Positions 2,364 to 61,104 of a stretch of 64,000 nucleotides of DNA are shown here, in pieces. Within the stretch, counting starts at the first letter, position 1. Every line of letters starts with the position of its first letter. Origin of the DNA: Amoebidium appalachense (taxonomy: Eukaryota > Protista > Ichthyosporea); NCBI GenBank assembly GCA_963693365.1, contig CAVNZM010000014.1, forward strand, positions 124,001-188,000. The letters are read 5' to 3'. The notes under the pieces were generated by a model, which saw only the letters and a program-made list of their open reading frames with translations, was not told the DNA's origin and made no database searches. The position numbers and the translations under genes were made by a program.

Positions 2364-2449
2364 CCCTCCCCGCCTTCGAACCTGTTCGCTGCCCACCCCG
2401 CTTCCTGCCAATCCCGTCTTCTTTACAAGTCCCCCCCCCATGCTTCTCA

Positions 2450-2484
2450 TCGTGTATGCGTACTTCGTACCGTGTTCCGCATTC

Positions 2485-2486
<2 letters not shown>
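2450..2486 (+). mobile_element. 3'-terminal fragment of the same repeat (subfamily 1)
   Basis: TCGTGTATGCGTACTTCGTACCGTGTTCCGCATTCAA is an exact match to the last 37 nt of 58535-58810 and is followed by a long C-run. Confidence 0.85.
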
Positions 2487-2548
<62 letters not shown>

Positions 2549-2844
2549 ACACACACACAAAGAAAAAAAAAAAAGAAAGAAAAAAGGAAACAAAAAAGGG
2601 CAGAAAAAAGGGGGAAAAAGAGAGAGACGGTAAGAGAGAAAGAAAAAAGGGTGCTCGAATAAGGAGGGCGTTGGCGAAACATCTAATGTTCGATAAAGAG
2701 AAATTCTATGGCACGCAGATGGTTGGTATGCCCTGGGAGGAGGAGGGGGCCAGGGTGGGGGTGGGACGGTTTTTGGGGGGGGGGGGGGGGGGGGGGCTAT
2801 TTTGGTCAGCAACCAACATGCACACCCGTGCAGGCAACACGGCC

Positions 2845-13378
<10,534 letters not shown>

Positions 13379-14670
13379 GATCCACGCCAACAAACTGTAG
13401 GCTTCCTACACATTATTTATGCACCCCGTCGACGGTGATTGTTATTATTTAGCTTATGGAATTGAATGTGTGTTGCCTGTTTTCCTCTTATGAATGCCAT
13501 TTTTTTTCTGCCACATAGAACTGTGGGTCCGTGGGTGATTGTAAAAACACATGCTGGTCGTGTGGGTGCAAAATAAATAAACAGTGGTTCGGACCCACCA
13601 AAGGGCAGTATTGGGAGCGAGGCGGCGCCACAAGGCGGTTTATTTGCGGATGGCCCCTGGCCACGTGCACATGTAGAACACCCACAGCACATGCACTCGG
13701 CCCCCTGTGTGTGTGTGTGTTGTTTTCCAAGAGCCATGAAATAGCATGACATGTGAATGTGCATCCATGCAAGTGCACGTGTGTGTTATGCACATCCGCG
13801 TGATGTATTGCAGCGAAGCTGTGTTGCAGTGTGCACATGCAAGTGTTGTTTTGCATGTAGACCGTGCAAGGTGTGGGGAGGAATAGAGGAAAAAGGACCG
13901 GTCAGTAAAGACCAGACAGGGCCAAACCTTATCCATCCAAAAACAAACCTCTGGGTAAGCTCAGTAGCTTTTTATAATCAAGATTCAGACAATGTAGGTA
14001 AATGGTTTGAACATCACGGCCACCCAGGGGCTTGAAGAATGAATGCAACGGCCTATATACACAAACGTGCAGGTTGGACAGCGTAGGTGTTTGCACGTGG
14101 TGCATACAGGGTATAGACAGGCACACGTGTGTTCATTCATGCCCACCCAGTCACAGCCAGTGGCAATCATCACGATATCCCCCCCCCCCCCCACACACAC
14201 ACACAAAAACATAAGAAACACACACACATGGACATGCATAGTTCCACGTACACACATTCAAGCACGCAGACATGCACAGCCCTCTCTTCCCTCCCCAAAA
14301 TGCACATATAGAGTGACAGACATGAACCATCGCCACTACACACATGTAATACCATCTACCCACCAACAAGCCAACAGACATCCATACTACAATGCATGCA
14401 GCAAAACATGCAATACTTCCCTAAACCCATCTGTAAGCGAGGACAACACAAAACATACGTGTAAGCAAGACACACTACAACCCCCTCTACCCACCTACAA
14501 GCATCCACACATACACATATCATATCATAACCCCTCCACCCACGTATCAGGAAGCAGAGATACACCATACTTACCAGCAAGCACACATGCACTAATAAAC
14601 AAATTTTACCCCCCCCCCCACCACCCATTAGCGAGCACACACATACCTATAAGCGAGCAGACATGCCCGT

Positions 14671-21977: not shown

Positions 21978-23795
21978 CTACCAATAGGAAACGAGACACG
22001 TCACCATAGCAACCACCCACATGGCCACCCCACCACGTGCACCATGTGCTGCCTCACTTGCTTTCTGGCTGCTTCCAGCAGGCACCGCATTCAAATTGTT
22101 GCTCGATTTAGCATCACACGTGGTACCGTTTAGGCTCTGCCCAAAATACGAATTTTCAAGTCGGAGGCCAGGGGGGTCCCTTTTGCTCGGGTTGCGAAGA
22201 AGCGGCATGGCATCGGCACGGGAACGAACCCCCCCGCAGATCGTCAAATTCATGGCAAGTGGAGCAATGGGTGGCTTTACATAGGCATATCCACATGCAG
22301 TCCAATTGATTGCGGGATAGTAGAAGACAACATCCAGACACATTTCCTCGTGACTAGCCATCCCGAAACTCACGTTCTTGTCTGTGGGGTTTGTGTACAC
22401 ACAGTGCGTGTTTAACCTATCACCGGGTTTAACCACTACCGGTTTGTCGAGGTTGATGAAGCGTTGGTAGCCAAAGTCGTAGTAGTCTGCCCTGCCTACG
22501 TCACCAAGGTAGGTGCCGTTGCCATCGTGGTGGGTGGTCCACATCTTGGTGCCCACCTGTGTGTGTGTGTGTGTGTGTGTGTATGTTATGCCAGAACATA
22601 GGGGAAAAGAGGCGGTCAGGGCCAACCCGATTCAGCAGTAGCATGGGATATTCGTAACCGTGTCTATCACAAACAATCGCATTTATTTGATTGTTAAATG
22701 AAGCTTCACCCATCACTGGAGGTGATAGCGCCAACAATAAACTTTTTCCATTTACTGCACGTGTTTTTTCTCTCCATCTCCCTCCCTTTTGCGCATGGTG
22801 CTGGTAGGGGAAGGGGCAAGGGGCAAGGGGCAAGGGGGGCGTGTTTTGAATGCGTAATAAGGTACGAAGTACACGACAACAACGGATAACACGATGCAGA
22901 ATGCAAACCATACATAAAGAGTATGCGTCATAAGCAGAGCCGGGGGGGGGGGGGGGGGGGGGGGGGTTGAATGCGGAACACGGTACGAAGTACGCATACA
23001 CGAAGGACACATGCAAAGGCAAACATTCAAGTATGCAACATAGCCATGCGCGCAGTATGCGTCATAAGCAGAGCCCATCTTCAGGGAGGGCCCAAGTCAT
23101 CAATTGCGTCTGAGTTTCGACCCCTTAGCCCGCGTATATACGACTCTCCAACTCAGACAGCAGCATCAACTGAACTTGGGAGGGTCAACCCGTCTTGATC
23201 AAAGACGAGCAGGGTTGCTTATGCAAGCAAGGTGAGCAAACGATGAATATGTGTGTGCAAACTAATGCAGTGCAGCGAAAAATGCGTATGTGCTTACAGA
23301 TGCACGACACAGAGCAACCATGCCCGGTTGCATGGAAGCAAAGCGGTCGGGGGGGGGGTGGGGGGTGGGTGGGGGGCTGCTTTTCTATGGCCACCTACAA
23401 TACAGTCATTTGCCTTGTGAGAATTTTTGCACCCTGACGCCAACGCACAAGCCGGTGCCTACCATGGGCATAGTTGCCGCACACACAAACACAACACCAC
23501 ACAAAATACACACACAAGATACACGCACACATTCACACACCGTCACACGCACATACAAAAAGGAACACACAATAATCAGCCCGCACCCCCCCCCCCCCAA
23601 AAAAAAAAAAAAAATTAAAAATTAAAAAAATACATCAGCAAACCGACACGTTTACGCACCTGGTGCATGTGTGCAAAGTCAGCAAAGATGGTGAGTGATT
23701 GGTTGAGTTTGGCTGTGCACTGTTCGGGGCAATCGTATTCGTACTCAATGGTCTGCCCGGCAGGGATGTTGGAGTCATCGTAGAAAGAGAAGAGG

Positions 23796-24079: not shown

Positions 24080-25736
24080 CACCGACAAAAGTTTCCCGTT
24101 GTGCACAGTAGTAGTTTTTTCACAGATCCCAACATCCTTGAAACATCGAATGGGCGAGGGGAGTATATGCTTCACAGAGTCATGATGAAATACATATTCA
24201 CGACCGACAACACAGTGCAACTTTATTTATCATAAGTTATTGGGGGGGGGGGGGGGAGACGGGTTATAAAAGAGAGAGAGAGAGAGAGAAGAAAGAGTGA
24301 GAGACACACACGACTGCACTTACCGAGCAGGAGCACACCGGCATCATACTTTCTCTTCTTCTCTGTGATGGTGAAGGCCACACCACTAGAGTCCCTATGC
24401 CCCGCCACATTGCCCGGGTTATCGTAGTGGATCTGCATCACAAAATGTCTGCTGCCCTCATCTCCACCCACCGGGTACCCAACATCGGGCGGAAGCACAA
24501 ACGAGTCCCCCCCCTGTGCAAACGCAAACACATACGCCTCACACCCCTTAACAGAGGCAGGGCATTTCTTGGGGCCATCTGTGTAGTTTGCGTAGTTCGT
24601 AGCGGTGAGGTTGTTAATGCACTTGTGTAGAACCACGTGGTGTACACGTGGCACGTTGGCAACCAGCGACCGCGGATCAACCACAGGATGGAAGGAAATG
24701 ATGTGGTAGCTGTTTTTGCCCGGGAGCACATCGTTCATGTCATACGACGTGCACACATACGAGGTCGTGTTGGTGGGCACCTCGTAGTCGCTAAACGTAA
24801 AGTTGAGCTTCTTCGTCTCCCCATCATCCGTCAATGTCGCACTGCGCGCACCCGGCGTGTTTGCGTAAAATGTTATCTCAGAACCCCCCCTGTTCTTGCC
24901 GTGGTAGCTAAGAGCCCCCCCACTACCCGCAGCCCAAACCACTCTGTTCGGGCCGGCCCGAATAGCCCTGTCCTGTGAGGTATCTCCCGTGTCTAGGGCC
25001 CTCTTGAGGGCAAAATTGATCATCCCATCAGCCGTCTGTTCGGCGGAAATAAGTTCCAGGTTCTGGCAGGTGTCGGCGTCGGGATAGACCTTGGCTAGTG
25101 CGTGTCTGGGGGATAGGGACGGGTGTAAGTATGTATAGGATTGAGGATGTGAGTATGTATAGGGCTAGGAGTGTAGTTCTTCTGACTTGTGCGAGTGCGG
25201 GTGTGCTGTGTGCCTGTTCTCGTCCTGGTTCAGTGTGTGTGTCTGTGTGGATCTCCAGTGCTAACACTTTAGAAACTGCACACCGTAATTGTTGCCCTAC
25301 TACAGGACGCGCAAACATGAAACACATGTTCACAGGCTCCTGCATACTGGGCGGTCAACACAACCCCACCTACCCACACATGCAGCCCTTCATGGCAGCC
25401 CTTCATGCACTCCCACCCTCCCCTCACACTTCACGTCCTACGACACAGCACGTGCACACACCTGTCCACAAGTGTTGCCTTTCCATCAGCCCCGAACTCC
25501 ACACTCCATATGTCGCTTCCCAGCATGCTGCCACTAGTGTACTCGGCTATCCCAAAGGCCAGCCAGCCCTTAGCCTTACAGCTCATAGCCAGCTCTATGC
25601 TGGTGGTGTTGGTGATGTTCCAGGCCACCGTGCAGTTAGGTTCCAGCTCATGTTTTGATGTGTAGGAGGACAGGGAAAAGTTGCCAGCTTGGGCGAGCCC
25701 AAACAGGGCCACAAGGCCCATACTAAGCAGAAGCAT
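21978..25736 (-). CDS. DOMON + copper type II ascorbate-dependent monooxygenase (DBH/MOXD1-like), secreted, probable GPI anchor or C-terminal TM
   Basis: Exons 25462-25736, 24324-25105, 23660-23796, 21978-22556. Features: signal peptide MLLLSMGLVALFGLAQA, DOMON motifs (GWLAFG, GSMLGSDI, RALDTGD, SYHG), copper ligands VHHVVLH, QIHYDNP, AHMH and EEMC, and hydrophobic tail VAMWVVAMVTCLVSYW*. The exon 3 acceptor reads CG rather than AG (see findings). Confidence 0.92.
22845..22941 (-). mobile_element. 5'-truncated copy of the same repeat (subfamily 2-type tail), in tandem with the full copy
   Basis: The minus strand reads GGCTCTGCTTATGACGCATACTCTTTATGTATGG...GTACTTCGTAC...GCATTCAAAA, separated from the full copy by a C-run. 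Confidence 0.85.
22967..23242 (-). mobile_element. Full-length copy of ~270-nt intronic structured repeat (subfamily 1)
   Basis: Reverse-complement match to 58535-58810. Lies in monooxygenase intron 3, sense to the host. Confidence 0.9.
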
Positions 25737-29894: not shown

Positions 29895-31292
29895 ACACAC
29901 TAAGCAGATAGCCAAAGATATCCAGGACTCCTGAAAACAGACCCATAATACTTGTACCTCTGCCACAACGTTCACACTCACACACCACTAAGCAAACAGC
30001 CGTGCCGAATGTACATAGCACACACATGTACATGCAGGCAAACAGTAACCCCCTTATTCACACACACACACGCCGACTTGAACATGGCACAGAATTTGCA
30101 GACACACACACACACATGTTACATGTTGTCCATGATATCTCTGCTACAATGCAGCCCTAATTAAAACTTAGGGAATAGTTAACTGTTCGTCGTAGTGGTG
30201 GGGTGGTTGGTTGGTTGATTGGTTGCCGGGGGGGGGGGGGGGGGGGGGGGGGGGGAGGGGAGGGGGGAGCCTCCGCGGGAGATTTGCCAGCCGTGGTCAA
30301 CGGAGCCGTCGGACCCCCAAAGGGGAGGGGGGGGGGGGGACCGGAGGACCCACCACCCCCTCGAGCAGGTGGCCATGGATCCCCTCTCGAGCCCCCCCCC
30401 CCCCCCCCCACCCCCCCACAGGCATTGTGGAAGAGGCGGGACCACCACAGGAACATGGGAGACCTTAAAATTTTTATCAGTACCCCCCCCCCCCCCCCCC
30501 CCCCCCCCATTTTCCTTTTTTAAAAAGCCTAACGGGGAGAAGGTGGAGGGAGGGGGGGCTGAGAGAAACACGGAGAGGAGTCGGAAGGGCCTGGGGGGGG
30601 GGGGGGGGGGGGGGGAAGAAATCGAAGTGTTTGCACGAAATTTCCCGGTCAAAGTTGATGAGCTTAAATCTACTGCAGGCTTGCAAAGGTGTTTTTCCAT
30701 CAACTTTGGATGGTTGACGGTGCTATGTACTTGTAAGTCACATTCTTACACGACGAGGAAACATATATGGTTGACTGCAAGAGGGATGCATATGGCACAT
30801 GTACATGTGTTGAGCACGTACACAAATTTTCAAATCCCCCCCGGGCCCCCTCCCCCCCCCTCCCCCCCACGCCCCCCCCCCCCCCCCCCCCCCCTTCTTC
30901 CGGCCCCCGGGCACCCCCCCCCCCACCCAAGTACCCCTTCCCATCCCGGGCTAGATCTTCCCCCTCCCCCCTCCCCCCCCTCCCCCCTCTTAACCCCCCT
31001 CCCCCTCAACACACACACACACACGGGCCCTACTCAATCAATTTTGTACAGAACTCATGTCAATGTGTGCTTCGTCGCTGCTAGCTGACAAGTTGTTCCA
31101 CCGGCCCGTCATGGTAGTGTTGAAAGAAACGTTATAAGCAAAAACTGAACGTTGCAAACCCACTCAGTCAGAATAACCGCTAGTGGAACATATCGTGGAT
31201 AGTGGAATGATCGTGGACACTCCTACACCCTAGAATACCCCTGCAAAACGAATTTCGAGGCTCGGAAAAGTTAACTGTGAAAATATATTATC

Positions 31293-31682
31293 ATGACTTT
31301 ATTGATATGCTCAGCAAAATAGAAGCCATCGAGATATCATCGATATCTCGGAGAAGAAAAATACAAAAGCCCTCACTCTCGGATACGGAGGAGATAACGA
31401 CTTAAATAATCATACACCTTAGAAAACTCATCAAACATACCGTGGTTCAACAGATATTCAATAGACGTAATTATCAGGATTATCTAAATAAGCCAGTCTT
31501 CTGATTTCTAACGGAATAATCTGAGATAAATAAATACATCTATCTAAGTTTTTACGAGAAAAAGGTTCTGCACAAAAGTGGCACAAACATTTATGGATAA
31601 TGACTTTATTGATATGCTCAGCAAAATAGAAGACATCGAGATATCACCGATATCTCGGAGAGGAAAATACAAAAGCCCTCAC
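31293..31682 (+). repeat. 84-bp direct repeat pair (31293-31376, 31600-31682), each with an internal palindrome
   Basis: ATGACTTTATTGATATGCTCAGCAAAATAGAAG.CATCGAGATATCA.CGATATCTCGGAGA.GAAAA..TACAAAAGCCCTCAC occurs twice. Confidence 0.9.
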
Positions 31683-35362: not shown

Positions 35363-35398
<36 letters not shown>

Positions 35399-36427
35399 TT
35401 TGAGGATGGGCTCTGCTTATAATGCATGCTCCTTGTGGTTTGCTCTCTGCATTATGCTGCGCATTATGAAGAATTCGTTCTCTATAACACATCCCCTCCC
35501 TCCCCCCCCTACGGGCACACTTTATCTCCCGAAAGGGAGCAAGGGGTAAGTGTTAAAGACACACTAGTTGAAATTGCTTTTTGGTTCACGGACGTGTGTG
35601 TGTGTCCGAGTGTCTTCCTGGCCCTTGGCTGGGTATGTTTGGTGTTTGGTGGTGGTGTCGGGTGGGCAGACTCGCGGACATGCAGATGCTTTGTGTGGGA
35701 AAGGTGGGTGGGTGGGTGGGAAAGGGGCGAAGGGGGGGGGGGGGGGGGGGGGAGAGGGTGGGAGAATGAGGGGGGTGGGTGGGTGGGTGGGAGAGGGGAA
35801 AAGGCGGGGTGAGGGGGTAGGGGGAGGGGGGAGAATTATCATGCTTGAGGCGTAGGGTTGCATTTTTTTTGTTTGTTGTTTTGTTTCGTTTGTGGTGGTG
35901 GTGGTGGTGTGTGTGTGTGTGTGTGTGTGTGTGCGTTTTGGGGGGGGGAGGGGGGGGGGGGGAGCAGAGACAGAAGGGCAGGTGAGTGTGTGTGTGCATG
36001 GCGGCAGGGAGGGGTTGCATCTGATTGGTGGGGTCTCTATCAGCCTGGCAGTGGTTCCTCAGGGCGGCAACACCGGTCTGGTCGGTGAGGCATCTTCCTC
36101 CCTTCCCCCCCAGTTCCTATCTATATTTTTCTTGCTTCTGCTTACTGCTGCAACTTTAACCCCCGGCCTTTCCCACTGCCCTTGCCTGCATAAGCAACCC
36201 TGCTCGTCTCTGATCAAGACGGGTGACCTACTCATGTTCAAGTGAAACAGTATCTGAGTTGGGTTTCGTTAACGAGGGGAATAGGTCGAAACTCGGGTAC
36301 TGTGGATGACGTGGGCCCCCCCTGAGGATGGGCTCTGCTTATTATGCATCCTCTTTATGTATGGCTTGCATTCTGCATCGTGTTATCCGTTTGTTCTTGT
36401 GTACTTCGTACTTTTTGACGCATTCAA

Positions 36428-36464
<37 letters not shown>

Positions 36465-39803: not shown

Positions 39804-40072
39804 GGGAGGAGAAAGGAAAATAGAAAAGGATGGGAAAGGGAGCTTGGGAAATTTCCGAGACGGGGGGAGAGAGGAGGCCGTGTGCAAGAATCTGACCCTG
39901 CAAACGGCATGCCAAGTGAATGGAGAAGGAAAAAGGCTCATACTATTGTAAATGGTTACGGACAATCGTCATGGGGCTGTAGCTCAGTGGTAGAGCGCTC
40001 GCTTTGCATGCGAGATGCCTTGGGTTCGATCCCCAACTGCTCCAGATCTTTCCTTTTTTGTTTTGTTGCACT

Positions 40073-40220: not shown

Positions 40221-41254
40221 CTATATATATATATTCCCCCTTTTTCGTCGCCGCAATTCCAATTTTTTCCTTCTCCTTCACGCCAAGCATTTCTTTATTC
40301 ATGTGTGTGTGTGTGTTGCTTTTACCAGGATTTATGTTGTTAGAGGGTTAGGTGTGCTCGATGGAAGCTTTATGTTGCAGGGGAGGGCTTTCCCTCGATT
40401 GGGAACTGTGGGGCTGTAGCTCAGTGGTAGAGCGCTCGCTTTGCATGCGAGATGCCTTGGGTTCGATCCCCAACTGCTCCATACTTTTTCCCCTTTCTCT
40501 TTTTGACTTCTTTTTGACCTTCTGTCATTCCCGTTTTTGTTATCTTGTAATTGTTGCCCTCCCGCCAAACGAAATCTTTCTGCCCCTGTTACACTGCGTT
40601 TCCTTCTGTTCGGTTCCCCTTTCAGTTTTTTTGTTGCCCTCTTGCCCTCTCTGCTCCATAATCCTTCCCTGTTTATTGCATTTGATAGAACTTTGTGTTG
40701 TTTTCAGTCCATGAGACCTGCAACTGCATGCACATGTGATGATTGCCTTTTTGCCTCCCGGCCACTCTCCCTGCCTCTCCCGTTTTGTCAATCAATCACG
40801 ACCTCCACCTAAAGAGAGAGCTGGATGTTTATATGCAGCTATATTTGTGTATGCCTCTGTGTATTTATTTGCTAAAGCGCGCATGCTCACCGGTATGTTC
40901 GGGAAAGTGTTTCCTTGTTCGCTAGGGTGGGATACCAACGAAGATATGAAGAACATGAGTTCAATGTTGTAAGATCGTGGTCCGTCCCCGGTCTCCAACC
41001 GGGGCTGTAGCTCAGTGGTAGAGCGCTCGCTTTGCATGCGAGATGCCTTGGGTTCGATCCCCAACTGCTCCACGGTTTTTTTTTTCTTCTTTTTTTTTTT
41101 TCTCCCCTTTCTTTTTTTTCTTTTTCTTTTTTCTTTTTCTTTTTTTTTTTTTTTTTTGGTTCAGGGAGGGGGAGGGGGAGAGGGAGTAGGGGGGGGGGGG
41201 GGGGGGGGGGGTATACATCTTCCCCTCCCCTCTGCACCCCCCATTTCCCCCCTC

Positions 41255-42069: not shown

Positions 42070-43843
42070 CCGTCAACGTTGCATTCCTTGGCTGCAGCAG
42101 CTATGAGGATGTGTGCCGCATTCTGTCCGAGTCAAAGCGCCAACTCGGTGAAATTCTGTCCGGTATATACCCCTGACACTGCTTAGAAGGGAAAAAGACT
42201 GAGGGGGGAAGGGAAGGGGGGTTTTTTTTTTGGGGGGGGGGGGGGGGGAGGGGGAGGGGGGGGGGGGGGGAGGAGATGGCTTTGAGGAGTGAGTAGGATG
42301 GGCAAGGGTAGACAGAGTGGTCTCTTCTGTATGGGTGTGAGATGATGGGTGGCTCATGGAGTCAGGTGGTGGTGGTGGTGGTGGTGATATTGTGTGTGAT
42401 TGTGTGTGATGGTGTGTTAAGTCGGGGAGGGGGGGAGGAGGAGGGGGGTGGTTTTCGATAGTACTCGTATCAATAGTGTGTGTTGACACACGTACCACCT
42501 TGCCTAACAAGGCTTAACCTGACTCCTGCCCGCCCCCCCTTCCTTCTGCAGCATGTGAGTTCCTTGATGATGGCAGCATGAATGCCGTCACCACCCACCT
42601 CAAGCGCACAAACCCCGTCAGTGGATCCTACCCGTTCTATGCCCTGATCGAGACATCGGGCTCAAACAACGACCACGATATGGAGGTACTTACTGCACGC
42701 CCATATAGCTCATATATATGTGTGTGGCTTGCCTCTTGCTGTTCACTGTGTGCTGCAGCCATGCGCGCATGAATGGACATCCTGGTGCAGACAACCCTTC
42801 CCCCCCCCCCCCTCCTCCCCCCCCCCCCCGCGGCCCTTCCTACCCACCCACCCAGAACCCAGTCCATGTTCAAGTGAAGCAGTATTTGGTTGGGCTTCGT
42901 CACAGGGTGAATTGGTCGGAACTCGGGTACCGTGGGTGACTTGCCCCCTCCTAGAGAGGAGCTCTGCTTATTATCCATATGTTTCTGTGTTTTGCACTCT
43001 GCAATATGTTGCCCGTTTATCATGTTTACTTCGTAAATTATAATGCATTATACCCCCCCTCCCCCCCCCCCCCAACCCTTGCCCCCCCCCCCACCCACAC
43101 CCACACACCTACCCCCCCCCCCCCACACACACACACACACGCAACCCCCCCCCCCCCCCCCCCCCCCCCCCCACACACACACACAGAAACTCAACAACTT
43201 CTTGGAGCACATTATGGGTGAGGGCTACTGCCTGGACGGCACCTTGGCACAGGACTCGAAGCAGGTTCGTGTGTGTGTGTGTGTGTTGTTGTGTGTGCGC
43301 GACCGCGTGCGTGTGTGCGTGCGCGCTTGTATGCGTGCTTGTATGCGTGCGTGCGTGGGCGTGCGTGCGTGGGCGTGCGTTGTGTGTGTGTGGGGATGGG
43401 TTGTTGGAAGGGTGTGTGGGTGGTGGCGGCAGCGGCGGCGGCAGCGGTGGTGTGTTTGTGTATGTGCTTTTTTTTGGGGGGGGGGGGGGGGGGGGGGAAG
43501 AGGTGGGGGGTGAGGGGTGAGGGGGTGAGGGGAGGGGGGGGGGGGAGGAGAGAGAGAGAGAAGGGGGGGGGGGGATTGGTCTAAAGATCTGTATGCGCAT
43601 GTGGGGTTGTGCGCACACGATTGTGGTTATCGTGTTGTGTGTGCGTGTGTGTGTGTTTGTTGTGGGGGGGAGGGGGGAGGGGAGATATAGATGATTGTGG
43701 CCTACATTGTTGTTCGAGGTCTGGATGAGTTTGTGGCAAGACCGAGGAAGGGCAGGAGAAAAGATGACACGGGGGGGGGGGAAGGGGGGGGGGGGGGGGG
43801 GGGGGGGGGAGGGTGTGTGGGGCGGTTTAATTTTTTTTCCTTT

Positions 43844-46752: not shown

Positions 46753-54044
<7,292 letters not shown>

Positions 54045-56605: not shown

Positions 56606-56706
56606 AAAAAAAAAAAAAACAAAAAAAAAAAACAAACAGTTTTGTTTTACGGAACGACAAAAAGTGCACTTGATTGACTCCGCTTCTTGCCCCCCCCCCC
56701 CCCCCC

Positions 56707-56738
<32 letters not shown>

Positions 56739-56905
56739 AGAAAAAAAAAAGGAAAAAAAAAGAGCTTTGTTTCCGGGATGACGAAAAGTGCAGTTGATTG
56801 ACTCCGCTTCCGCCTCCCCCCTCCCCCCCCCCCCCCCGAAAAAAAAAAACTAAATAAATAAATAACCACCCATTCCTTGCCAGATGGGGCTTTAGCGCAG
56901 ACACC

Positions 56906-58238: not shown

Positions 58239-58308
58239 TAGGAACCGAAGGAGAGCCATCTCCAACTCCATGGATCGCAGTGAAGCCACCACAAAAATGC
58301 TCGAGGTC

Positions 58309-58361
<53 letters not shown>

Positions 58362-59309
58362 AAAAAAAAACTCGGGTACTGTGGATGACGTGGGCACCTC
58401 CTGAGGATGGGCTCTGCTTATTATGCATACTCTTTATGTATGGTTTGCACTCTATATCCTGTTATCCGTTGGTCATGTGTACTACGTACTTTATGACGCA
58501 TTCAAACCCCCCCCCCCCCCCCCCCCCCCCCCCCGTTTTGCTCACCTTGCTTGCATAAGCAACCCTGCTCGTCTTTGATCAAGACGGGTTGACCCTCCCA
58601 AGTTCAGTTGATGCTGCTGTCTGAGTTGGAGAGTCGTATATATGCGGGCTAAGGGGTCGAAACTCAGACGCAATTGATGACTTGGGCCCTCCCTGAGGAT
58701 GGGCTCTGCTTATGACGCATACTGCGCGCATGGCTATGTTGCATACTTGAATGTTTGCCTTTGCATGTGTCCTTCGTGTATGCGTACTTCGTACCGTGTT
58801 CCGCATTCAACCCCCCCCCCTCCCCCCTGCTTTTCTCAGAAGTCATCTGTGAGGGCCCCTCTGCCGAAGCTTAAATGTCACACCCACACATGCACCCTCT
58901 TGTTTTTGACCACCCTGCCTTGCCCCCCCCCCCCCCCCCCCCCCCACCCCAAAAAAAAAGAAAGAAAAAAAGAAGAAAAGAAAAGAAAACGTGCACCCAC
59001 ACAGCGGCATACGCAAACGCACACAGGCACACACGTGTGCAGGCATACCTCCTGCACATGCACGGGTGTACACAGACAAAACGCACAGAGATATACACAC
59101 ATGCAGGCATGTGCGCGCGCACACACACTGACCTCATCCCTTCCCCCCCCCTCCCCCCCCTCCCCCCCCCCCCCCCCCCCCCCCCCTCCCCAACACACAC
59201 ACACAAACACGCACGACCGAGTGAAACCAGTTTTTACGTCACTTCTTTCTCAGTCTTGGAGAAAAAACACACTTTCTTCCTCAGCGCCCCCCCCCCCCCC
59301 CCCCCCTTC

Positions 59310-59345
<36 letters not shown>

Positions 59346-59482
59346 TCCCCCTCCCCCCTCCCCCCAGATCTGACTTCCTATCCTCGATTTTCTGCATCCT
59401 ACCCCCCCCCCCCACCCCCCACCCCACCCACTCACCTCCTGTACGTCTGTGCCCCATGGCTTACCACCTCTTCCACCCCCCT

Positions 59483-59513
<31 letters not shown>

Positions 59514-60282
59514 CAGGTGGCCGGCAATCTAGACAAAAGCCTTCTAGACAGTTCCATGGCTGGGTTCCAACTCCTCAGCGAGACACGCTATCTCCTAAAA
59601 TGGACTGCTGCAAAACACGTGCGCGTGAGCTTTGTGCAGACAGACACAGACACAGAGCCTGCAAGCACACACTCAAACGACACCCAGTCAACACACACAA
59701 TCACACCTACAAGCAGCTTCACTTTAGAAAAGAGTTTACCCTCACGACGCAACTCGCACTATGTCGATTCTGGTTGCGGTGATAGGAAATCACCTGATGG
59801 AAGGTCTGAACTAGCGCTACCTATGTTGCATCAGTATGCGGCCGACTATAATTCTGAATTTGTGAAATACAAGGATGTGCACGTGTTCTTGTTTAACGAT
59901 CTTGTGCTGATTGTTAAACACGTGGCTAGGAGATATGTGGCTCTGTCTGTGCCGCTCTATCTGAAGTCCTTGGTCGTCTACGAGTGCGAGGTGTGCCCCC
60001 CTCCCCCCCTTCCCTCTCTCCCTTTCTCTCTTTCTCCCTCTCTCTCTCTCTCCCTCCCCCTCCCCCTTCCCCACCCTCCTCCACTTTTTCTTCTTGGTCT
60101 TTTGCGTTTGGTGTTACAAGTCCATTCTAGGTGCACGCATGCCCCCAAAACCACGGCCAGCGCACCAGCCCTCCTCTACCCCTCAACCGTGTTGTATGTT
60201 TGTGTTCTAGATCATCGCCACTAATACCCGCATACACAACATGCACATGCTCACACACAAACACACACACAAACACACAAAC

Positions 60283-60429: not shown

Positions 60430-61104
60430 ACTCGCTCGCATCACACACACACACTGTCACTCACTCACATGACACACCGCACACACACACACACGTGCAT
60501 GCACACACGAGCAAGACACCCGCACGCCGCACACAGACCCACACGCACATCTTCCTCCAGTTGCTCCCCACCCATCCCCTCACCCTCCACCCCCCCCTTG
60601 AGATTGGGCTCCGCTTATGATGCATATTCCTTTCCTTTCATTGCTTTTCAATCTGCACTGTGTTGCCCGTCATGTGCTCAGGAACACATTCTTAACCCCC
60701 CTCCACCCCCCCCCCCTTCCCTCTCTCCCTCCCTCCCTCCTTCCCGCCGGGGAGGGAACCCACCGTACGGATTGAGCTGAACTAAATAACCCCCCCCCCC
60801 CCCCCCCCTCCTTCCCCCACCCCACCCCCCCCCCCCCCCCCCCCCCCACCCCCTGCACATGCACACAGACAAGTGCGTGCGCACGCACACACGCACACAC
60901 ACACACACATGCACACACACACACACATGCACACACACACATGCACACACACACACACACACAGCCACCCATGTATCAGGCAAGCCACAAGTTCCGTCTT
61001 GTGTTTGGCGACTACCAATACGTGCTCAAGGTGGGGGGGCCGGAGGAGAGGAACGAATGGGTCACACAGACAATAGGTGCCACGGAGTGGCTGGATACAG
61101 TGGA

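Follow-up and report, generated by a model that had tools for sequence, protein, structure and literature searches.

Intronic repeats at C-runs of Amoebidium appalachense: probable 3' ends of Penelope-like elements with a predicted four-block hammerhead fold

The repeat at 58535..58811 (+) of a 64-kb stretch of Amoebidium appalachense DNA (the window) raises the question of what kind of element it is, and how its copies came to lie next to C-runs in introns. By a combination of BLAST and a profile search, with a profile built from seven of the copies, 13 repeat pieces were found at 11 loci of the window, 2 of these pieces being weak. All 10 of the copies listed in an earlier sequence-only reading of this DNA were recovered, and three pieces were added to them. 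The added pieces lie at 51815..51875 (-, E = 3.3e-6, with CUGAGGA preserved and in the sense orientation within a minus-strand gene's intron), 24167..24235 (-, E = 0.08, weak and degenerate, in a MOXD1-like intron), and 6708..6775 (+, E = 1.8, in a CLPB-like intron), the last being a weak, degenerate 3' end followed by C-runs that may be due to chance. These three pieces are all intronic and sense, as are in orientation all of the copies listed before.

The pieces represent at least two subfamilies, A and B, which have a 165-nt core and the 3' end in common and differ in their upstream parts. The A copy at 58535..58811 is 5'-truncated and lies in intron 58307-59517 of a PH-domain gene, with C28 before it and a C-run after it. 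The longest A copy (22966..23348 (-), 383 nt) lies in a MOXD1-like intron. Over 275 nt these two distant copies, taken from 58535 and 23240, are 99.3% identical with 2 differences, in agreement with the near-identity reported before. A third A-type piece, the last 49 nt with a long C tail, is found at 2439..2487 (+), upstream of the likely CLPB-like start codon near 2844, where it may lie in a 5'UTR intron. The longest B copy (36112..36429 (+), 318 nt, 5'-truncated) fills most of an RNA-confirmed intron of a FAD-oxidase (D2HGDH-like) gene and has a C32 tail. Two B 3' pieces are partners of A copies in the two head-to-tail tandems, joined by C-runs, that the earlier reading described: 58365..58507 (+), preceded by C44-A19 and 90.7% identical to the copy at 36179, is the upstream partner in one, and 22845..22941 (-), behind C26, is the downstream partner in the other. 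A B-like 3' piece at 5557..5660 (+), in a CLPB-like intron, has its 5' end at an internal C-tract of the element, as does an old 3' piece found by the profile search at 35394..35493 (+). The other older pieces are at 42859..43053 (+), 76% identical to B, and at 60592..60697 (+), an intronic 3' piece within the PH-domain gene. Identity is 87-91% for B-type pieces and 72-81% for older ones, which points to several waves of insertion.

Exon and gene bounds were read by eye, and the gene names (CLPB-like, MOXD1-like, FAD-oxidase or D2HGDH-like, and PH-domain) are provisional labels. Pfam backs the genes and their strands for CLPB-like, MOXD1-like, FAD-oxidase, and PH-domain, the PH matches being below the cut-off. 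The splice sites of exon 36043-36085 were confirmed by RNA contigs of public run X16, one of which is spliced on both sides. The minus-strand gene at 47-54 kb has phosphoesterase-like motifs by eye and no Pfam match. In the CLPB-like gene (2833-13380), ankyrin-like exons precede the AAA domain, an arrangement like that of the animal mitochondrial CLPB form; the ATG at 5438 is preceded by likely coding exons, marked by weak Ank matches, at ~2844-2880, 2967-3085, and 4471-4557. One FAD-oxidase intron holds three equal-scoring tRNA genes in the sense orientation (39973-40044, 40410-40481, and 41001-41072), which are tRNA-Ala-like by an anticodon read by eye. An RPS18 exon is 96% identical to a gene model of Ichthyophonus hoferi and 82% to Sphaeroforma, which places the host among the ichthyosporeans.

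The window stretch was matched in 20 of the 24 public sequencing runs listed, which carry six organism labels, and contigs of these runs show that the unit is longer than the ~270 nt first estimated, as the copy at 23240 reaches ~23348 and its extension is itself high-copy. In contigs over 22968-23345, a stretch of 100 nt that was first taken for flank is as deep as the rest, and subfamily A is therefore at least 383 nt long. For the B copy, depth begins at 36112, and a consensus that continues upstream for at least 30 nt more is present in 21 contigs of run X1 (which has no cover of the unique flank 35975-36102), 24 contigs of run X7, and 1 contig of run X10. This common upstream sequence indicates that B is at least ~350 nt long and that the window copy at 36112 is truncated; the upstream B motif has no second copy within the 64-kb window. 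Because A and B both continue upstream, all of the copies in the window appear to be 5'-truncated.

Contigs matching 22968-23345 number 10,456 in run X1 and 6,702 in run X5. In run X7, the unique flank has a depth of 9.7 compared with a summed element depth of 1.7e5-1.1e6, a contrast that is not a copy number and yet marks the repeat as very abundant. There is no clear 5'-ward fall of the summed depth over 380 nt in subfamily A contigs. The loose ends of contigs behind 36428 are C-runs (24 contigs in run X1 and 47 in run X7), and the shared 3' end followed by a C-run, together with variable 5' ends, is thus seen in genome-wide contigs as it had been described for the window. Head-to-tail joints account for 5 of the 10 entries listed for the A query and for 7 of the 12 listed, out of 18, for the B query. 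These listed joints mostly have 2-9 C or G-rich linkers and variable 5' points, and the internal C-tract is the 5' breakpoint in 5 of the 12 tandem joints listed for A and B together and in 3 of the 13 window pieces. An assembly artefact was rejected, since contigs from several studies show both the tails and the tandem joints.

Run X16 holds spliced RNA, and the summed depth of the element there is 0.9-4.6e4 compared with 947 for a spliced mRNA contig, in contigs that show neither strand nor expression level and leave the unique part of the intron without cover. Two contigs of this run (1,542 and 317 nt) end in a B-type piece, and some copies may be present in mature transcripts. A joint from 23335 to 23009, which leads from the 3' domain back to the 5' extension, has a depth of 8 in run X5 and of 158 in the RNA-containing run X16. 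Reading the A 5' extension as a repeat of the 3' domain, as in an LTR-like unit, was rejected when 251 and 257 of 500 shuffles scored equally well. The near-identical A copies (58535-58811 and 22966-23240) carry a common allele at 23052 that in runs X1 and X5 makes up at most about 2% of the summed depth. A 15-nt segment found in many contigs and in the piece at 2439 is missing from both copies. As judged from these sequences, the rare allele and the missing segment suggest that the two copies arose recently from one source, that gene conversion took place, or that strains differ. A contig of run X7 matches the unique flank 35975-36108 over 134 of its 160 nt, up to just before the element; its other 26 nt could represent an empty allele.

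The above results support the view of a retroelement that was active recently, is copied starting at the 3' end, and has a tie to C-runs. Between the two options left by the earlier reading, a poly(C) tail and a poly-C target, the latter fits best. The young A copy of the tandem 58365/58535 follows an older B piece, and that of the tandem 23348/22941 precedes one; we infer from A copies on either side of B pieces that insertion was into a C-run already present. C-rich sequence is also found on the 5' side of most pieces, and no pre-insertion empty site was seen in the data examined.

The family, which the sequence-only reading did not recognize, has the pattern of the Chlamys Penelope-like elements (PLEs) of Chlamydomonas, for example MRC1 and the pair Chlamys-9_cRei and Chlamys-N4_cRei. 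These elements target (C)n and (CA)n for insertion, are often 5'-truncated, and form partial tandems, and their non-autonomous families sit in head-to-tail arrays (PMC8557442). In mutation-accumulation lines, the median length of new insertions of this Chlamys-9/N4 pair is 128 bp, compared with a typical ~100 nt here, and every one of them lies in an intron, in line with the (C)n target (PMC9977147), and two Chlamys consensus ends read AA and then C's (PMC8557442), as do the ends of the copies described here. Further likenesses are the head-to-tail arrays, families with common 3' ends, and the lack of a visible target duplication. Traits of Naiad/Chlamys PLEs are present as well, namely frequent 5' truncation with a common 3' end, tandem or partial-tandem insertions (2 in the window and 12 listed joints), and insertion in C-rich tracts with no discernible target duplication. 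A pseudo-LTR before a full-length copy was not seen in the window or among the listed joints; none of the 13 window pieces has an inverted 5' copy or a 30-40 bp tail extension, and none of the listed joints changes strand. Because the (C)n targets, the short, intronic, truncated copies, and the stacks match those of Chlamys, the poly-C lifestyle is not new.

In other respects the element differs from Chlamys. The hosts given for Chlamys in the sources available to us are green algae, spike mosses, a slime mould, and Ectocarpus (PMC8557442, PMC12477816), whereas the host here is an ichthyosporean, a group for which neither the accessible part of PMC11244446 nor our literature search names a PLE. 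The sense bias seen here is not mentioned for Chlamys in the portions of PMC8557442 and PMC9977147 at hand. No reverse transcriptase (RT) was seen in the known 3' parts of the element. The open reading frame of Naiad/Chlamys PLEs encodes an N-terminal GIY-YIG endonuclease, a CxC motif, and a telomerase-like RT (PMC8557442); a Pfam scan of 146 of the 344 filtered open reading frames of the window found neither RT nor GIY-YIG. There is no sequence match to Chlamys, as compared by eye and by a short-motif search: in the supplement of PMC8557442, to the extent that it was accessible, 4 of 6 short motifs were absent from the Naiad/Chlamys consensi and 2 gave single matches. In public collections, searches with two motifs found 0 loci in metagenomes, prokaryote genomes gave 0, and viral scans gave 7 and 1 loci matching the seed only. 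Further background on such elements is in PMC5560861, PMC4640811, PMC13159263, PMC11167929, 10.64898/2026.05.21.726589, and 10.64898/2026.07.22.740005.

On the combined evidence of insertion pattern and fold (see below), the copies are likely to be 5'-truncated 3' ends of (C)n-inserting PLEs of the Naiad/Chlamys clade with a predicted rearranged-hammerhead tail. If so, the PLE endonuclease would nick the G-rich strand of a C/G tract, and the nicked end would pair with the C-rich end of the RNA and prime reverse transcription. Synthesis would often halt at the structured core, with an internal C-tract annealing to the target. Every new copy would again have a C-run behind it, onto which later copies could stack, and target duplications would be hidden because inserted copies are bounded by C's. 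The nick, the priming at the RNA 3' end, and the premature stops are proposed by analogy with established PLE and target-primed biology; for A. appalachense, we infer the C-run targeting, the stops at the core with C-tract microhomology, and the membership of the clade. Self-cleavage by the core is predicted at a distance from the 3' end of 184 nt in A and 169 nt in B, a role that may be likened to that of PLE hammerheads, which are thought to process tandem precursors.

A C-run target also bears on placement. The copies had been described as occurring only in genes, and indeed 0 of 11 loci are intergenic, with no match of E<1 by profile search in the intergenic stretches that had been named as empty; the claim is statistically weak, with P = 0.02 by length and 0.05 by C/G-tract count when gene bounds are read by eye. 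The claim that copies are always sense holds for 11 of 11 loci. This is partly expected, since the C-tracts themselves are mostly sense: with the same gene bounds, tracts of at least 10 away from elements number 61 sense and 34 antisense. Given this ratio, the probability of 11 sense loci among 11 is 0.008, and that of 8 among the 8 loci listed earlier is 0.03. The distribution of C-tracts probably accounts for much of the gene and sense pattern and not for all of it. Under the proposed mechanism, intronic and sense placement would be set mostly by where C-tracts lie, and the leftover sense excess would need selection or transcription-linked access.

Other features of the C-tracts were seen in the window. 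With thresholds of C8A8 and T8G6, a C-run directly followed by an A-run (or a T-run by a G-run) occurs 15 times, at 8287, 23586, 31695, 32368, 36646, 38995, 41820, 42222, 43468, 43841, 47942, 53205, 56564, 56690, and 58312, in both orientations relative to genes; the reverse order occurs 0 times. These sites could be tail-only retro-insertions or the result of directional slippage. Short intergenic direct repeats were noted by eye at 31290-31380 and 31600-31680, and at 56660-56690 and 56785-56815.

What is new in this element is its predicted hammerhead-like fold of four blocks. In the A copy the predicted fold spans 58552..58719 (+) and consists of an outer helix (58552-61/58707-19), a junction helix (58563-65/58701-03), a hairpin (58568-88), stem II (58591-96/58653-58), a helix that links stems I and II (58597-606/58678-86), stem III (58615-26/58662-72), and stem I (58628-31/58689-92); the outer helix, the hairpin, the linking helix, and stem III are in the minimum free energy fold, and the others are predicted. 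By descriptor, cleavage is predicted after 58627 (GUU), with GAAA at 58659-62 and CUGAGGA at 58693-99. The order of the core, stem III-GUU-stem I, stem II-GAAA-stem III, and stem I-CUGANGA, is that of a type-SGC (S-G-C), non-circular hammerhead. The core nucleotides (CUGANGA, GAAA, and NUH with an A15.1-U16.1 pair) are present in three of three long copies, with cleavage predicted after 36260 in the B copy at 36112..36429 and after 23150 in the A copy at 22966..23348, whose core CUGAAGA is changed at the free position 7; they are lost in the 42859 copy, where the hammerhead core is broken.

In all three long copies, the bases after CUGANGA do not pair with the strand before GAAA, so that a canonical stem II is absent. 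The predicted 6-bp partner of the strand before GAAA lies 36 nt upstream of the cleavage site, and the sequence that follows the core is predicted to pair with a short stretch in front of the hairpin, which ends beside this stem II segment; this arrangement would form a four-way junction at A9. In an alignment of five window copies, which stand for about three independent lineages and a structure chosen by the analyst, 166 of 169 cells are paired (98.2%), compared with 29-41% for slid controls. Changes on both sides affect 6 of 49 pairs, including 1 of 3 in stem I, 2 of 6 in stem II, and 2 of 11 in stem III. A descriptor, built post hoc after the element had been seen, matches only the three long copies in 128 kb (both strands) and 0 of 4000 shuffles per subfamily. 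As a negative control, 77 viral loci with these motifs in this order were compared, and a single one has stems of the minimal length (4 and 3 bp), whereas stem III of the element has 9-13 bp.

Other features of the fold are less favorable. Stem I has 3-4 bp, and the triplet is GUU, a weaker hammerhead cleavage triplet. In A contigs, variants that break pairing affect the hairpin (23191) and pair six of stem II (23181). The folds of single copies are unremarkable (z from -0.4 to -1.7), and RNAalifold on 5 gapped copies recovered stem III and not the pseudoknots. The Rfam model of the canonical hammerhead (RF00163) gave 14.2 bits against a gathering score of 34 (E = 1.6), over half of the model and for the B copy only. 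No window copy or listed joint begins at the predicted cut (23149, 36261), which argues that the cleaved 3' piece is not the usual template. Attempts to read the sequence by eye as an HDV-like, twister, or pistol ribozyme or as a canonical hammerhead of types I-III gave no reading that fits both subfamilies. A likeness to SRP RNA was dropped, as no SRP model matched.

The type-SGC hammerhead was shown to cleave by Eckert et al., who found it outside the genomes of known organisms (PMC10085705). The element shares with it the block order S, G, C (H17 at 58627, GAAA at 58659, core at 58693), all core nucleotides, and an extra helix between stems I and II. It differs from type-SGC in that stem II would be formed with an upstream strand, so that A9 would meet stem II across a four-way junction. 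The permutation rules, by which six permutations were thought possible, assumed that CUGAnGA must run directly into stem II (PMC10085705); in none of the three long copies is CUGAnGA contiguous with the strand of stem II.

Inspection by eye shows this block order and this set of helices also in the tails of Naiad_EuTe, Naiad_Obim, and Naiad_Ovul, with letters that differ in every helix. In common with these tails, the element has, in order, the junction helix, the hairpin, the 5' strand of stem II, the linking helix, stem III-NUH-stem I, stem II-GAAA-stem III, the linking helix, stem I-CUGANGA, and the junction helix. In the octopus elements Naiad_Obim and Naiad_Ovul, helices of 6, 6, and 5 bp and a GUA site were read by eye. 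The Naiads have a longer stem I (6 bp compared with 3-4 bp) and carry UUC or GUA triplets in place of GUU. Naiads are elements of animals (the tails compared here are from octopus and crustacean) that prefer (TA)n or have no preference, as opposed to (C)n here, and they were described as lacking canonical hammerheads, with Naiad_Ovul flagged as a "half core" (PMC8557442, as far as accessible). Naiad_Esco fits the fold in part by eye, and the end of Naiad_Ppla has no such motif by eye. This predicted common fold is the main link of the element to the Naiad/Chlamys clade. In the family listed before Chlamys-1_dArm in File S6 of PMC8557442, the 3' half of a hammerhead (stem II, GAAA, a short stem III, and GUC) lies ~130 nt from the end, in a layout that differs from the element here.

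We hold it slightly more probable than not that Naiad/Chlamys elements carry an overlooked, active four-block hammerhead, with stem II formed from upstream via a four-way junction. Our literature search, with most subscription journals outside its coverage, found no description of this hammerhead variant. It is a good deal more speculative, and in our judgment doubtful, that such an active hammerhead, together with thousands of sense intronic copies in this organism, would free the element from the need for a promoter, its RNA pool being supplied by host transcription followed by self-cleavage.

Other origins of the copies were considered. They could be 3' UTRs from a C-run-targeting LINE or SINE, the poly-C analogue of Zorro3, which is an L1-clade element of Candida albicans that has poly-A on both sides and no target duplication (PMC3956500). 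Homopolymer targeting by an L1-clade element is established by Zorro3, and it resembles the element here in its homopolymer target, the homopolymer on both sides, and the missing duplication; 5' truncation and homopolymer tails are moreover general to target-primed retroelements, and no RT was seen among the 146 scanned reading frames that could fix the clade. Zorro3 is a poly-A, low-copy, promoter-biased LINE. Against this origin, (C)n targeting is documented for Chlamys (PMC8557442), and no poly-C LINE was found in the literature search. In addition, the hammerhead-like fold recurs in Naiad tails, and Rfam finds no small-RNA head in the known 383 nt of A and 268 nt of B, whose true 5' ends lie further upstream. 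We consider this origin unlikely. Still less probable is a promoterless RNA that is cut from host introns, tailed with poly(C) by a host enzyme, and reinserted in transcribed genes. The sense orientation of all 11 loci exceeds what the C-tract ratio predicts, and the family is present in RNA run X16, in contigs that give neither level nor strand. The C-runs on the 5' side, linkers of as little as 2 nt, and the position of young A copies, before an older B piece in one tandem and after one in the other, point to the C-run as a target; no copy begins at the predicted cut, and the source of a template does not set the orientation of its insertion.

Spread at the DNA level, by template switching or gene conversion between C-tracts and with no RNA step, would explain why many 5' breakpoints fall at the internal C-tract, and the near-identical A copies with their common rare allele at 23052 count in its favor; DNA-level exchange may account for this pair. 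A fixed 3' end, thousands of contigs, and compensatory hammerhead pairing would not be expected from it, and as a general explanation we hold it to be very improbable. Hardly credible is a family of host non-coding RNAs (snoRNA-, SRP-, or telomerase-like) kept in introns: the element is structured, intronic, and sense, but most copies are truncated and decayed, and at the gathering score Rfam recognizes three tRNAs only in the window, with the element at chance level at E<=10. Truncated 3' ends of (C)n-inserting PLEs of the Naiad/Chlamys clade therefore remain our preferred reading.

If the fold cleaves, it would break the stated assumption that CUGAnGA must adjoin stem II, put non-circularly permuted ribozymes in eukaryotic genomes, and call for a change in the published picture, in which canonical hammerheads play no part in the spread of Naiad/Chlamys elements. 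As a marker, the fold could help to classify RT-less repeat fragments that are now called unknown. The element itself would extend (C)n-targeting PLEs to the unicellular relatives of animals, and with it one could study what causes the sense, intronic placement of insertions and by what means pre-mRNA copes with ribozymes in its introns.
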